Source: Eledone cirrhosa
Taxonomy: Eukaryota
Direction: 5' to 3'
DNA length: 64,000 bases
Assembly: GCA_964016885.1 (NCBI GenBank)
Contig: CAXHJY010000252.1
Span: 1-64,000 of the forward strand
The notes under the pieces were generated by a model, which saw nothing but the letters and a program-made list of their open reading frames with translations, was not told the DNA's origin and searched no databases. How positions within the stretch are numbered: the stretch's first letter is position 1; every line of letters starts with the position of its first letter. Below are positions 1-63,287 of the stretch, piece after piece. A program made the translations under genes and the position numbers.

Positions 1-123
1 GGTGATGAAGGACTAGTGTCCGAAACGTTAAGACGCTCTTCCTGCTATTTCAAGCGTTAAACTAATATATTTCTTCCATATACTGTACCGTTTGTTTTGT
101 TATTTTTGTTAATACCTTTACAT
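1..123 (+). mobile_element. HHR-bearing PLE/retrozyme-like fragment, family A, cut by the window edge
   Basis: gTGATGA-a-ggac/tagt/gtcc-GAAA-cg-TT-aaga followed by a tail ending in (TA)n. Homologous to 55594-55730(-), 55420-55493, 25590-25660 and more distantly 15910 and 24880. Confidence 0.7.
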
Positions 124-273
124 TATATATAAATATATATATATATATATATATATAGGAACGAGTAGGACTCCGACGGCTGAGCTCAAGCCGTTTCGAC
201 GGCTAATTCTGGACGCAGAATTATATATATATATATATATATATATATATATATATATATATATATAATTCTG

Positions 274-970
274 CGTTATAGTCGCATATATGTTATAGAA
301 TGCCGTTAGCTTCTTGCTAAAACAATCTCTATACCTCTCATTTATATTTATACTCGGATTCTTTTCCTAGAGTGCTTAAACTATCTGTGACTAATCCCGG
401 TTTTTTTCATAAAAACTGTGATAATATTGCTATTTTGCTGAACTCCTTTGTAGAGTTTTTTTCAGAATGTATTTGACTGCTATTTCTTGTAAATAAACAT
501 TCACTTCCATCCTGACGTCACTAGCCCCGTTTTTTCCTCATGTGCTTTTTCATAAATACACATGAAGGCGAACTAGCCAGTTTTAGAATTCCCTTTTTCG
601 GATTATATTACTGTGAGAGCCCTGGTTTTCTGTTGAGCTCTGCTGATGATTGAAATTCCAACCGTGACCATCTCCACTGAAAGTTTTCATGAAATAGTCT
701 TTTAAGACTATACAGAGCATTTGATGTTATTCCAAATTGAAGGATAAGTGTTTCAAACTTTATTTTATCATGAGTTAAAGGTCTATAGATTTTCCCTGGA
801 TTTTACTAAATTCTGTGGATGAATTTATATCCTGATTCTCTTTTGAGATGAGTTTGAGTTATTTTTCCTAAATCTTTCGTTAACTACTTTTCCCATCTTG
901 ACGTTATAGTCGCATATATGTTATAGAATGCCGTTAGCTTCTTGCTAAAACAATCTCTATACCTCTCATT
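274..970 (+). mobile_element. Complete 628-nt non-coding HHR monomer with about 67 nt terminal redundancy (retrozyme-like)
   Basis: 274-340 recurs at 902-968 (period 628). One HHR inside, no ORF, 3' end runs into (TA)n. A 5'-truncated copy at 4737-5062 has the same 3' end. Confidence 0.75.
637..718 (+). ncRNA. Type I hammerhead ribozyme
   Basis: Stem I gctctg/cagagc, core CTGATGA 643-649, stem II base tgaaa/tttca, GAAA 691-694, stem III tagtctt-tt-aagacta, predicted cut after A712. Confidence 0.8.
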
Positions 971-1023
971 TATATATATATATATATATATATATATATA
1001 TATATATATATATATATATATAT

Positions 1024-1133
1024 TTAATACATTAACAGAGAAAGCTTTAAGCAATACTCCGACCGGCTCCCGTCTCACTCAACAAACATTAGGATATACC
1101 TTAGTATAATCCCAATTATACGTTTGGGGTGCT
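1024..1133 (-). mobile_element. 3' tail fragment of HHR family Y
   Basis: Reverse complement is homologous to 59770-59882, and it is flanked by (TA)n. Confidence 0.6.
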
Positions 1134-1481
1134 ATATATATATATACATATATATATATATACATATATATATATTTATATATATATGTATGTATATATA
1201 TGTATACATATATATGTATATATGTATACATATATATATATATATATGTATATATATATGTATATATATGTATATATGTATATATATATGTAAATATATG
1301 TATATATATATATATATGTATATATATATATGTATATATATATATATGTATATATGTGTCTGTGTGTATATATATATATATATATATATATATATATGTA
1401 TATATGTGTGTGTATATATATCTATATCTATATATATATATATATATTAAAAAAAAAATATATATATATATATGAAACACA

Positions 1482-1640
1482 ATTTAATATAGAAATGGCT
1501 TCTACAAGACTAGAACTGTTTCATTCGAAGGAAATCATCAGGAAAGCTTTCCTGGTGATTTCTATATTAAATGTTGTATACACTCTCCTAATGTATTGAG
1601 TACCTTACTGTGGTTACTCTCGATTGAAGCCTTTGATTAA
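1482..1640. mobile_element. Family E HHR fold-back insertion, partly deleted
   Basis: Minus-strand HHR 1498-1547: gctttc-CTGATGA-tttccttcgaat-GAAA-cag..ttg-TA-gaagc. Symmetry centre AAGCTT near 1546. Tail shared with 26298-26355 and 60264-60335. Confidence 0.75.
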
Positions 1641-59517: not shown

Positions 59518-59582
59518 GCAGCTTAGCAGACACGATTTTTAACTGCGGTAAGAATTTTTTCTTATATCAAAGTTTAATGGGC

Positions 59583-59697
59583 TTCCACTGATGATTTATA
59601 AGCGCCCACCTAAATATATTCTTACATGAATATATGTTAGGCTTCTACATAAACTGGAAACATTCTCCTAAACTTATAATGAAACAATTGTTTGGAA
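59583..59697 (+). ncRNA. Type I hammerhead ribozyme with long stem II insertion (family Y element, about 59520-59882)
   Basis: ttcca-CTGATGA-t-ttataag...cttataa-t-GAAA-CAATTG-TT-tggaa. Confidence 0.8.
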
Positions 59698-60263
59698 AGA
59701 GAGATATATTTTAACTTTAATTATATCTCATAAAATAATACAACTGGCTTTCCACATAATACATATAGTTAGCACCCCAAACACTTAAATTAGGTTTATA
59801 CTAACATATAACCTAATGTTTGTTGAGTGAGATGGTTACCAATCAGAGTTCAGCTTTAAGCTATCTCTGTTATTGTATTAAATATATATATATATATATA
59901 TATATATATATTAGGTTTATACTAACATATAACCTAATGTTTGTTGAGTGAGATGGTTACCAATCAGAGTTCAGCTTTAAGCTATCTCTGTTATTGTATT
60001 AAATATATATATATATATATATATATATATATATATATATATATATATATATATATATATATATATATATATATATATATATATATATATAACGAAGGAA
60101 GTGTGGTAAGGAACCAGGTGGACCATAACGCACCAAAGTACTCAATACTTAGGGTAGTAGAGTGGGTAATAGGAACGAGTAGGACGAGTAGAATTAGCCG
60201 TCGAAACGGCTTGAGCTCAGCCGTCGGGGTCCTACTCGTTCCTATATATATATATATATATAC

Positions 60264-60465
60264 GTTATTCCGGGTTGAGTCGGAGGTAACCACAGTAAGT
60301 AAGGTACTCAATACATTGCAGAGTATAAAAGTTTTAATATAGATGAGATTCTACAGGACTAGAACTGTTTCATTTTTTAGAAATCATCAGGAATCTCCTG
60401 GGATTCCTGATGATTTCTAAAGAATGAAACAGTTCTAGTGCTGTAGAATCTCATCTATATTAAAA
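60264..60465. mobile_element. Family E fold-back with two complete HHRs (60345-60397 on -, 60400-60452 on +)
   Basis: g(a/g)gattc-CTGATGA-tttctaaa(a/g)aat-GAAA-cag ttctagt(c/g) ctg-TA-gaatctc. Confidence 0.85.
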
Positions 60466-61923
60466 TATATATATATATATATATATATATATATATATAT
60501 ATATGTGTGTGTGTGTGTGTGTGTGTATGTGTATGTATGTGTGTGTGTGTGTATCTTTTCTCACTAGTCAGTTCTTTCGTTGCTACAGATCACGTGGCTG
60601 AATTAGCGGTCGCTATTTTCAATTTGCAAAGCCCTTAAAACTGTATGTTATTACTCTGAGGTCCATACCTTGTCGAGTGCTCGGCTGCACTGCTGAAGGC
60701 GTTCGTTGGCTTAGCTGCTGATCGAACTTCGAATATGCTGTACTATTGTATATATATATATATATATAGGCCAGAAATAGCCGTCGAAACGGCTTGAGCT
60801 CTGCCGTCGGGGGTCATACTTTTCCCTATATATATATATATATATATATATATATATGTATCTATGTATCCGTGTGTGTGTGTGTGTGTATATATATATA
60901 CAGCATATATATATATATATATATATATATATATATATATATATATATATATATATATATATATATATATATATATAACGAAGGAAATGTGGTAAGGAAC
61001 CAGGTGGACCATAACGCACCAAAGTACTCAATACTTGAGGTAGTAGAGTGGGTAATAGGAACCAGTAAGACCCCGACAGCTGAGCTCAAGCCGTTACGAC
61101 TGTCCAGAATTAGCCGTCGAAACGGCTTGAGCTCAGCTGTCGGGGTCTTACTGGTTCCTATATATATATATATACAGATATATATAGATATATATATACA
61201 GATATTTTGACGGCTATATCTGGACTGAAATAGCCGTCGAAAGGGCTTGAGCTCTGCCGTTGGGGTTAAACTTTTTCCTATATATATATATATATATATA
61301 CATATATATATATATATATATATATATATATATATATATATATATATATATATATATATATATATATATGTATCAATGATATTAATAAATGGAAACTATA
61401 TTTATAAAGCCATATTTATTCTATTATATATATTTCAAGGGTACCAAAACTTTGGTACGTTCTCATCAGATAAAATACAAAGTTTGTTTTATAAATATTG
61501 ACATATCCAGGAATGAGATCTTAACGGTTCAAGTTTTTCCTATTAATATCATAGATATTATACTCCAGAAAATCTGGCGAGTGCTTCGAATCTGTTATAA
61601 ACATATACATTTGTTGAATTACCAACAAATTAAATATCCCTTTGCTATATAGGTATATATAGGTATATATAGGTATATAGTATATATGTGTTGCGATGAA
61701 ATACCAATGATCGTTGGAAAATCACTGATGAGGGACTAATTTTATAATATGTAATCCATGTGCAACCATGCAGTATTCTTCTCCCCATGTTTTTCATATA
61801 TATATATATATATAGATATATATTTGGGTATATATAGGTATATAGTGTATATGTGTGTGTGTGTGTGTGTCTGAGTATATATATATGTATGTGTGTGTGT
61901 GTATATATATATATATATATATA

Positions 61924-63287
61924 GTTATACTTTGGGAGGGTCATGTTGCCAATAAGAAACACACGCACCAGTTGCTTTCACTCCAATTTATTATAAATTA
62001 AATTCATGAATTTAACGAATTTATAAATTTCCGCTTGGTTGGTTGGTTCCACAACCGGATGGTTGTTCATATATTGTCAAAGTTCTTTCGTCACACATTC
62101 TGTGACCTCTTCAGGCACAAAACAAAGAAAAGAATCACCAGTCACAGAATGAGTGACGAAAGAACTTTGATAATATATGAACAACCATCCGATTGTGGAA
62201 CCAACCGACCAACCAAGCGTAAACTTATAAATTCGTTAAATTTATGAATTTAATTTATAATAAACTAGCAGTAAAGCCCGGCGTTGCTCGGGGTCGCTCA
62301 GTAGCTGTGTTAAAGTTACAATGTTAAGTTTCTTTCTTGGCTTAAAAACTGTAGTGTCTACTGTGCAGACTTGCATGTGGTGTTTTTGATTAATATTCCC
62401 TCAACCAACAATATGCCTTATGAAGTTAAGAAAACATAACGATAACCCGAATGTTATAACAAAAGAGGATGCTGGGGATAGAAACTGCACTGGTTATTTA
62501 TTAACAAAAATCGAAAATGTAAACACTGCAACGCAGAGAAAAACATTAGCGTAACCAAATTATCAGTTATGTCTGTCTGCACGCCTATATCACCTCTCTG
62601 CACGACTGTCTGTCTGCACGCCTATATCACCTCTCTGCACGACTGTCTGTCTGCACGCCTATATCACCTCTCTGCACGACTGTCTGTCTGCACGCGTATA
62701 TCACCTCTCTGCACGACTGTCTGTCTGCACGCCTAACGACGAAATATTTGCTTGTTTTACGAAGTCTTTAAATAGTCTTGTTTTCAAGTAAAAATATTGT
62801 TTTAAAATGCTTTTAAATGGAAATGAAGCAAAACGGAAGCTTAGTGTTCGAACTGATGAATTTTGCAGGTCAATATTTTGCTGGCTCGACAACTGTTAAA
62901 GGCAGCGTAATTTTTTACGTAAGACGCTCAATGTAAACAGAACAAAGGGAAATAACTGATAACTTACGCTCAAAAATTGATACATTATATTCGATTTCGT
63001 CACATAGGGTGGGTCAATTTGAAATTTTTTTTTTCCGATGTCTTCGCTAGGGCTCAATGTACAAGTATAGCAATTTCGGTGCAATTCCGTGAGAGATTCT
63101 AAGAGCAGATGTGTGCCAAAAATCGATAGACAGACAGACAACCACAGTTTTATATATATAGATTGGAGTGAAAGCAACTGGTGCGTGTGTTTCTTATTGG
63201 CAACATGACCCTCCCAAAGTATAACAATATCGGTTTCAACACACGTTTTCAGATAAAGAATCTTCCTAAACAAATTCAGAAAAGAAA
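61924..63287. mobile_element. Fold-back insertion (about 180-bp arms, degenerate HHR 62074-62120 on -) interrupted by a Helitron
   Basis: 61924-62106 mirrors 62141-62264 joined to 63163-63225. CTGAAGA-g-gtcac..gtgac-GAAA on the minus strand. Confidence 0.8.
62265..63162 (-). mobile_element. Non-autonomous Helitron, full length
   Basis: 5' A|TC, 3' hairpin plus CTAG|T, no TSD. The empty site aataaa^ttggag is confirmed by the opposite arm of the host palindrome. Confidence 0.9.

Follow-up and report, generated by a model that had tools for sequence, protein, structure and literature searches.

In positions 1 to 64,000 of contig CAXHJY010000252.1 (assembly GCA_964016885.1) of Eledone cirrhosa, the 64-kb stretch hereafter called the window, type I hammerhead ribozyme (HHR) motifs recur between tracts of (TA)n. 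We consider it fairly probable that these motifs are HHRs in the 3′ ends of Penelope-like elements (PLEs) lodged in (TA)n, and that the head-to-head pairing of their copies stems from both nicked target strands priming DNA synthesis at two fixed sites. A preliminary description of the window had proposed instead that HHR elements, most of them non-autonomous and dependent on PLEs, had radiated here, with every island between TA tracts a complete short element.

Hammerhead motifs in the window

The window was scanned with a scored descriptor (stem I, CUGANGA or variant, stem II, GAAA, stem III, UH, stem I) that permits U4C, a U3-A8 pair and a stem II of up to 130 nt; the core motif and its numbering are consistent with PMC4209133. 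A stricter first descriptor, which disallowed a long stem II and a short stem III and gave 1 and 15 matches, was replaced. Twenty-eight matches scored at least 20, compared with 0.35 per run (maximum 2) in 40 dinucleotide shuffles of the whole window, 0.53 per run (maximum 4) in 40 local shuffles with the TA tracts held fixed, and 0–2 for each of four decoy cores run on the real sequence, so that the comparison with shuffled sequence suggested in the preliminary description yielded a large excess. With core variants including U4A, 30 motifs scored at least 19; one, at 21819, had a chance-level score, was not TA-bounded and was dropped, leaving 29 credible motifs, and about 10 further decayed or weak-stem copies are visible. 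Thirteen of the 14 cases that had been listed as clear scored at least 19 (60345/60400 counted once via 60400; 55676 borderline at 19), and the other, at 31933, has a mutated stem III and gave no score, its intact relative in L253 (loci and sampled regions of the genome are given L numbers) scoring. Stem II inserts of 50–85 nt, beyond a plain descriptor, occur at 13929, 49220, 58705 and 59583, a U4C core at 49220 and 54889, and a U3-A8 core at 58705.

The matches formed 17 clusters, one of them the chance match, and the credible motifs represent 16 real clusters plus family R. The earlier statement that about 17 families have unrelated stems is only partly true, because five clusters (three A-type, D and A4) have a common stem I and stem III pattern. 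The described placement at TA tracts was borne out, the cut site lying at most 200 nt upstream of a TA tract in 27 of 30 window motifs; in a sample of 72 regions of 10 kb, taken at round coordinates of the 3.0-Gb genome, 97 of 132 HHR cut sites lie equally close upstream of a TA tract, versus 29% of random positions. Rfam returned no hammerhead among the best 150 of 348 window matches and none at gathering score in seven loci.

It is practically negligible as an explanation that the motifs are chance matches in AT-rich DNA or palindromes created by library preparation or assembly. False matches do arise, as in the eight in L146 from a 27-bp satellite and the chance-level match at 21819, but the roughly 50-fold excess over shuffles and the covariation of core and stem speak against chance, and an artefact would have to produce outward orientation in 63 of 63 cases, arms differing by up to ~15–20% and family-specific end sites. 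Pieces of family E also occur in contigs of public sequencing runs, which counts against an artefact and has no bearing on expression. The satellite, an AT-rich repeat present at L011 300–1150 and in L146, imitates the U3-A8 descriptor.

Covariation and core variants of the ribozyme fold

In 71 sampled regions and the window, the 3-8 pair was C3-G8 in 99 matches and U3-A8 in 29, each of the other combinations of the 16 occurred in 0–6, and changes at core positions 5, 6, 9, 12 or 14 in 0–4. Among 25 A/D-group copies, all five basal pairs of stem II vary on both sides and 94.6% of cells are paired, a value reached in none of 500 shuffles, although this count is not a probability because the copies are related; stem I of these copies shows one-sided changes only. 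Covariation among genomic copies, named in the preliminary description as a check, was thus found at the 3-8 pair and as compensatory change in stem II, without a counterpart in stem I. These features, which the descriptor does not impose, support selection for the ribozyme fold as read from aligned copies.

Minimum free energy (MFE) folding gave a three-way junction for family C and stems I and III for family E, the stem III of its HHR being 6 bp long; members of the A group misfold as monomers, and with their palindromic stem III they should need dimers (compare PMC4209133). Short palindromic stem III occurs in 87 of the 132 sampled matches. Self-cleavage of the HHRs is predicted from structure.

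Two core variants are family-wide, with perfect helices: U4A in family R (window 7870), which supplies 12 of 14 U4A matches, and A13C with U3-A8 in family U (window 13438, minus strand), which supplies all five A13C matches. Family O (55829–55909 and 61688–61795) ends on TA and carries CUGAUGA, with GAAA 27 nt upstream instead; no GAAA follows between CUGAUGA and the 3′ end, and it fits none of the HHR topologies tried. Family V (15913 and 24882) has a good HHR core, a stem II and a minimal stem III, with no clear stem I in the copies at these positions.

Coding Penelope-like elements behind the motifs

Of the 29 credible motifs, 21 go with families that have PLE copies bearing an open reading frame (ORF), 5 lie in non-coding units and 3 in families H, F2 and M2. 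Long copies in the families of these 21 motifs carry a Hydra- or Neptune-type ORF on the same strand, 0.2–1.7 kb upstream of the end, A4 being tied to coding PLEs through A/D-group kinship only. The proposed association of TA-targeted type I HHRs with PLEs in many families was thereby confirmed, but the proposal that the elements are mostly non-autonomous was not, since 21 of 29 motifs are 3′ ends (pseudo-long-terminal-repeat, pLTR, regions) of ORF-bearing elements elsewhere in the genome.

A search for PLE ORFs sharing terminal sequences with the window families, as the preliminary description had envisaged, recovered long copies for eleven of them: in the Hydra group, A (L061, L130, L063, L132 and L163, with A1/A3-type ends in L163 and L132), B (L065, with a complete U3-A8 HHR), C (L291), D (L074), F (L270), J (L254, a complete pLTR-ORF-pLTR element) and R (L030 and L084); for Neptune, P (L011) and U (L023), with the Neptune-type L (L136); and N (L073), an element with reverse transcriptase (RT) and GIY-YIG domains. 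Family C was linked to a Hydra ORF in 2 of 19 loci, from a search on the endonuclease (EN) side only, and walking upstream from family C ends gave no ORF link. In L061, A2 continues 1.6 kb upstream and enters an RT-EN frame, and in L130 it reaches a 750-codon Hydra ORF with RT and, at its C terminus, a GIY-YIG-type EN, together with part of the 5′ pLTR. Hydra motifs in A2 comprise RWR, DKT, a CxCX5C linker (L061), no CCHH, and CxxC with CxH; they were read in A2 (L130, L061) and, for the EN part only, in R (L015), the other Hydra families being assigned through tblastn similarity of 26–61%. Judged by these motifs and similarities, families A, B, C, D, F, J and R appear to be Hydra-clade PLEs. 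Pfam RVT_1 and GIY-YIG profiles do not detect the Hydra-type ORF; Neptune- and Penelope-type elements were found with the GIY-YIG profile.

Families P, U and L carry a CX2-5CxxC linker, CCHH-type residues and, C-terminally, a GIY-YIG domain (L011, L023, L136), with both Pfam profiles matching in L011, and are putatively Neptune-type, the clade being assigned by motif only. The C-terminal EN and the presence of HHRs set these elements apart from Naiad and Chlamys, whose EN is N-terminal and which lack canonical HHRs, and the nearest named protein to the PLE ORF is from Argonauta hians, at 39%. Another Neptune-type family, in L014, L015, L018 and L026 and absent from the window, has a compact HHR ~400 nt past its ORF.

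The proposed radiation of mostly non-autonomous elements, one per island, therefore seems very improbable. In its favour, the window lacks a PLE ORF; families E, K, M and G consist of non-coding units in tandem, with E 99–100% identical across chromosomes; and no ORF partner turned up in 267 loci for H, F2, M2, I, O, S and V, nor for A4. Against it stand the 21 of 29 motifs in families, or in the A/D group, with Hydra or Neptune ORFs, and for A, B, D, J, R, P and N the proposal is already refuted in large part. A fixed 5′ end of family A, which would have suited a short unit, proved apparent only, being the inverted tail of its own 3′ end. That the window contains no RT or GIY-YIG partner stood in so far as tblastn found no PLE ORF there, but a non-PLE RT fragment is present: it lies at 10401–10796 on the plus strand (RVT_1, E 2.9e-16) and is of the long interspersed element type, with an opposite-strand fragment at 10055–10441 (minus). 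PLE proteins gave no tblastn match to this window RT fragment, so it is not PLE-like and not the partner.

Head-to-head arms and two end sites

Most islands are two arms joined head to head and not the single units first described. Of 63 HHRs located in inverted islands, all 63 point outward, no tail-to-tail pair was found among the examined insertions, and both outer ends are element 3′ ends abutting (TA)n. The 3′ ends of each family fall at a proximal site, 17–151 nt downstream of the HHR cut, or at a distal site another 60–165 nt on, and most end sites are followed by a TA-like pad of 3–6 nt. Among 155 head-to-head pairs with both ends on TA (267 loci, 11 families), 140 combine a distal with a proximal end, about 20 of the 140 having been fetched with a query of that layout. 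A family-free inversion test had returned 76 asymmetric and 26 symmetric of 124 islands, and was redone per family because in many of the symmetric cases an internal TA run had divided the island.

Of 98 clean pairs, 80 have overlapping arms and 18 a distal arm made up of the tail only; 37 have a longer proximal arm, 16 a longer distal one, and in 45 the two end within 12 nt of each other. Kilobase differences in arm length run both ways (L061, L074 and L073 versus L065), and in a set of 80 distal arms, 15 come to an end no more than 15 nt from the proximal site. We rejected the HHR cut as the point where arms end, given that 1 of 172 arms ends within 3 nt of it; 59 of the 172 end 31–45 nt upstream of the cut, mostly B and C arms stopping inside the ribozyme.

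We propose that both strands of the TA target would be nicked by the GIY-YIG EN, the target being self-complementary so that both strands can be nicked alike. One strand would prime at the proximal site and the other at the distal site, with the TA-like pad after the end site able to anneal to the target primer, and both complementary DNAs (cDNAs) would usually stop early and be joined at their truncated ends, often where both had stalled. Both arms probably come from one RNA molecule, with their overlap arising through strand displacement, as suggested by the accumulation of distal arm ends at the proximal site and by the lack of pairs that mix families. No such pair was found among 110 unpaired arms, and a frequent derivation of the two arms from separate RNAs is thus unsupported, one B+E junction (L180) notwithstanding. 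Because arms run through the HHR cut, the copied RNA would have been uncut there or re-ligated, and the scarcity of arms that end at the cut speaks against a role of the ribozyme in setting where inserted copies end.

Two-site priming fits what is reported in vitro for the Anolis Poseidon element PAc (Frangieh et al. 2024, PMC11167929), whose protein extends the two strands of the target, initiates at two positions that bracket the tail, just downstream of the HHR, and uses mainly uncut RNA as template. In the available text of that study, the start site is the same between strands and not homologous to the target, and the two sites are not linked to the inverted copy, whereas here the two arms of one insertion nearly always differ in site and most sites are TA-padded.

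An alternative, which we regard as unlikely, holds that a single RNA or cDNA folds back and self-primes into a hairpin whose strands the EN cuts at staggered TA-like sites; self-priming on an antisense template was proposed in PMC3846280, and formation of the tail by endonuclease-mediated resolution in PMC8557442. The 45 pairs with arms ending within 12 nt of each other, frequent junction overlaps of 1–6 nt (tabulated without a null model), TA-like motifs at both end sites that could be cut sites, and the lack of mixed-family pairs among the 110 unpaired arms all suit such a hairpin. Yet a fold-back copy must overlap its template, and 18 of 98 distal arms are tail-only; the new arm should belong to one end class, and the longer arm is proximal in 37 pairs and distal in 16; and two RT start sites flanking the tail have been seen in vitro (PMC11167929).

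Several observations weigh against two-site priming itself. The 45 near-symmetric palindromes are what fold-back would give, and a staggered hairpin cut also predicts distal-plus-proximal ends. Four of the 155 pairs scored as same-site (two from tandem M units, one a nested pLTR and one a genuine-looking R pair), one H pair likewise looks proximal plus proximal, and 11 were unclassified, four of these being H pairs for which the reference proximal site was misplaced. The pad at the B, C and F proximal sites is just 1–2 nt in the copies read, and the Poseidon start site, as noted, neither differs between strands nor matches the target. For 110 TA-adjacent arms no partner was detected, and the 5′ end of 25 of these lies directly against TA; family E has a single start site and no inverted self copy in 14 of 14 loci, from which it follows that two-sided priming is not obligatory. 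Arm ends, placed by BLAST with single natural copies as references, may be off by several bases, and some 5′ ends may be limits of the reference. Most HHRs also show no ribozyme fold as monomers in the MFE prediction.

Non-coding tandem units

Families E, K, M and G are plain head-to-tail repeats with one type I HHR per unit and a longest ATG frame of 45–97 codons. In the window, E is represented at 268–970 (plus) by a non-coding 628-nt unit with a 69-nt terminal repeat (HHR 637–718) and by an older E-related copy at 4737–5061 (plus), 5′-truncated inside the HHR core; K at 48765–49371 by an inverted distal arm and one non-coding 483-nt unit (U4C HHR 49220–49301); M at 58633–59517 (minus) by 1.5 non-coding 595-nt units (U3-A8 HHRs 58705–58794 and 59300–59389); and G at 13808–14177 (plus) by part of a non-coding ~840-nt unit (long-stem-II HHR 13929–14038). 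Elsewhere in the genome the 628-nt E unit forms arrays of up to 12.4 units (L256), with 2,326 genome candidates and copies 99–100% identical on many chromosomes; K occurs as three 483-nt units in tandem, M as three units of 592–595 nt in L077, and G as two copies 840 nt apart with decayed HHRs. ARAGORN detected no tRNA in the window.

The arrays, of 1–12 units, all finish on TA at a constant 3′ base and begin with an incomplete unit on the 5′ side. K and M carry the tail and inversion layout of the coding PLEs, which ties them to PLE proteins through insertion anatomy and not phylogeny alone. Array-specific variants occur in E, with a G in all five units of L182 and an insertion plus a substitution in all 12 of L256, where variant patterns recur between units 8 and 10 and between 9 and 11. 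Together with the constant 3′ base and the partial 5′ unit, such variants fit repeated copying of one circle, as far as array sequences can tell, and later unequal crossing-over in E arrays is also likely. RNA of E, K, M and G would be cut to monomers by its own HHR, circularised and copied in trans by a PLE protein, giving 1–12 tandem units with a constant 3′ end; the role of the HHR would be to cut and circularise RNA and not to define insertion ends.

It is considerably less likely, in our judgement, that the arrays expanded from a PLE end at their present location through unequal crossing-over (compare bioRxiv 10.64898/2026.07.22.740005). The array-specific variants fit either origin and the repeated patterns in L256 point to crossing-over, but growth in place accords poorly with arrays on many chromosomes at 99–100% identity that have the same end base on TA and a partial 5′ unit, and with K and M arrays bearing an inverted tail arm like that of coding PLEs.

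E shares 55 nt at 82% identity with sequence just past the C distal site (L251 6797–6849; window 863–917), and may derive from a C-like pLTR, both having a stable stem III. In L180, 1 of 14 E loci, an inverted tail-bearing Hydra B arm is joined to the 5′ end of an E copy, which could hint at a B protein mobilising E or reflect a later deletion.

Genome-wide abundance

The 72 sampled regions contain 132 HHR matches against ~10 in shuffles, and a size-weighted estimate, which was made after removal of six of the eight L146 satellite matches, extrapolates to unplaced contigs and leaves out decayed copies, U4A/A13C cores and arms truncated inside the HHR, gives 451,000 HHR motifs in the genome (bootstrap 334,000–576,000). 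HHR density is 4.4 per 10 kb in the window versus ~1.6 in the sample, and the 283 TA tracts of the window cover 12.9% of it versus 5–6% in the genome, an excess in step with that of the HHRs. The density noted in the preliminary description is genome-wide and not that of a local radiation, the window standing ~2.7-fold above average in both HHRs and TA content. Nine of the 72 regions (L062, L066, L069, L090, L093, L099, L140, L147 and L168) have neither a TA tract nor an HHR, and HHR count and TA-tract count correlate across the sample (Spearman 0.54); PLE insertions may themselves multiply TA targets. The largest published count that we found is 126,247 HHR motifs in the axolotl (PMC7229834), other animals having ~2,000–9,000 per genome (PMC4209133), and the estimated ~450,000 would be 3.5 times the largest count found in print.

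Insertions in the window

A-group insertions comprise A1 at 12747–12971 (plus; HHR 12864–12929) and 31279–31461 (plus; HHR 31354–31419, with C3U in this copy), an A4 insertion (HHR 47606–47670, minus) beside an A1 insertion (HHR 47976–48041, plus) at 47562–48083, and A3 at 55143–55493 (HHR 55186–55247, minus) and 61374–61645 (HHR 61417–61477, minus). A2-type proximal arms with tail-only distal arms lie at 32779–32980 (HHR 32820–32885, minus) and, for A2 itself, at 54369–54619 (HHR 54410–54475, minus), and 48125–48729 holds an A2-type distal and proximal pair (HHRs 48255–48319, minus, and 48423–48487, plus) followed by a single proximal arm (HHR 48623–48688, plus). Family D occurs as a single proximal arm at 1784–1949 (plus; HHR 1841–1911), as a tail-only distal arm with a proximal arm at 16776–17015 (decayed HHR at 16934), and as pairs at 33596–34061 (HHRs 33633–33703, minus, and 33865–33935, plus) and 45487–45905 (HHR 45522–45592, minus; decayed copy at 45719, plus).

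Family B is present as a proximal arm truncated inside HHR stem II (158–221, minus), as proximal and distal pairs at 22452–22659, 60092–60242 and 60978–61158, and as a proximal arm with a tail-only distal arm at 26069–26209. Family C forms a head-to-head pair at 1474–1628 (HHR 1491–1553, minus), a pair at 26284–26475 (HHR cores 26405, minus, and 26413, plus) and a distal and proximal pair at 60263–60464 (HHR 60399–60453, plus; weaker core 60390, minus). Distal and proximal pairs of family F lie at 13062–13245, with an incomplete HHR, and at 54678–54989 (HHR 54888–54965, U4C in this copy); J and R each form a proximal and distal pair, at 32297–32748 (U3-A8 HHR 32461–32569) and 7799–8025 (U4A-core HHR at 7870).

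Among the Neptune and Neptune-type families, P has a proximal and distal pair truncated downstream of its U3-A8 HHR (11772–11949), U a 3′ end at 13260–13679 (minus; variant HHR at 13438), and L a 3′ end at 55595–55802 (minus; minimal HHR 55676–55711), with which clusters another L 3′ end at 1–132 (plus), its HHR core cut off by the start of the window. A proximal and distal pair of N (61924–63286; decayed HHR core 62114, minus) is split by a nested ~880-bp repeat. Finally, H forms a pair at 16190–16537 (HHR 16426–16483), I a pair at 31730–32270 with a decayed long-stem-II HHR near 31933, and F2 and M2 lie on the plus strand at 33240–33460 (HHR 33305–33370) and 59520–59881 (long-stem-II HHR 59583–59697).

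The ~880-bp repeat, at 6848–7701, at ~62270–63150 inside the N insertion and in L026 (5838–6821), has a 37-bp internal tandem and one end CTAG, and we take it to resemble a non-autonomous Helentron-type element. A 637-bp repeat at 23505–24141 ends on TA, is ~92% identical to many genomic copies (35 matches) and has no scored HHR. Copies of an abundant repeat resembling short interspersed elements, often beside (AAT)n, lie at ~15970–16160, 18900–19040, 56419–56604 and 56871–57050.

Comparison with known elements

The Hydra families described here resemble the Hydra clade of Craig et al. 2021 (PMC8557442) in their C-terminal endonuclease, RWK-like and DKT motifs, CxCX5C linker, lack of CCHH, CxxC and CxH around E and N, canonical HHRs and insertion into (TA)n. 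They differ in scale, with few published families, generally under 3 kb, against many families and 59,938 Hydra-EN candidates here (a first-look genome count, alongside 10,596 for GIY-YIG, neither being a copy number); tails are 69–136 nt compared with 30–40 bp as published, 3′ untranslated regions run to 1–1.7 kb, and A2 is ~4.1 kb. The Neptune-type families share with the Neptune clade RT with a C-terminal GIY-YIG domain, the CX2-5CxxC linker, CCHH-type residues, microsatellite targets and pLTRs, and differ in their HHRs, which are U3-A8 in P and U3-A8 with A13C in U, with the clade assignment resting on motif.

With the metazoan PLE hammerheads of Cervera & de la Pena 2014 (PMC4209133), those of E. 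cirrhosa have in common type I topology, palindromic stem III, U3-A8, many families per genome, mostly single motifs from truncated PLEs, and opposite-strand pairs 100–700 bp apart. They depart from them in number, ~2,000–9,000 per genome against ~450,000, and in stem II inserts of up to ~115 nt and family-wide U4A and A13C, absent from the available text of that paper. The non-coding families are like the animal non-LTR (non-long terminal repeat) retrozymes (Cervera & de la Pena 2020, PMC7229834; Li, Clavereau & Pollet 2026) in their head-to-tail units with one HHR each, monomers to multimers, low GC and co-occurrence with PLEs; the units here, known from DNA copies, are 483–840 nt long and TA-targeted, against the usual 150–450.

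What appears new is the scale and the near-strict distal/proximal pairing, the families being members of known element classes; the literature already covers PLE hammerheads, U3-A8, the targeting of TA by Hydra, inverted copies tailed at one end, and non-LTR retrozymes. In L1 twin priming, reportedly described by Ostertag & Kazazian in 2001, both target strands are said to prime cDNA, which gives an inverted 5′ part, with a variable second priming site and no sequence duplication; here, by contrast, neither site varies and 80 of 98 clean pairs have overlapping arms. Our literature search, which covered few subscription papers, found no report of HHRs among octopus or cephalopod repeats, nor any that connects PLEs with twin priming. 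A 2026 Octopus vulgaris annotation (PMC13282606) names Penelope-like elements and, in its available text, neither HHRs nor Hydra; relatives of these families may be present in its library or in the supplementary tables of PMC8557442.

Implications

The origin of tandem and inverted PLE insertions and the role of their HHRs are declared open in PMC8557442 and PMC11167929. With hundreds of thousands of short mappable insertions in dozens of families and a known target, models can be scored by counting, and each family supplies two start sites, a target and natural open-frame copies, which makes them testable in vitro. K and M provide direct anatomical evidence for PLE proteins mobilising animal retrozymes, the ~450,000 motifs, missed by Rfam and Pfam, would be a large unannotated repeat class, and the core variants U4A, U4C and A13C and the long stem II form a natural library of HHR variants. 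More tentatively, and with somewhat more doubt than conviction, we suggest that one ribonucleoprotein primes both TA strands at two fixed sites on uncut or circular RNA as a general PLE rule, that this genome has the most HHRs found reported, and that ribozyme circles use the same machine. If true, one priming rule would account for three features of all EN-bearing PLEs, namely the pLTR, the inverted copy and the tail at one end.

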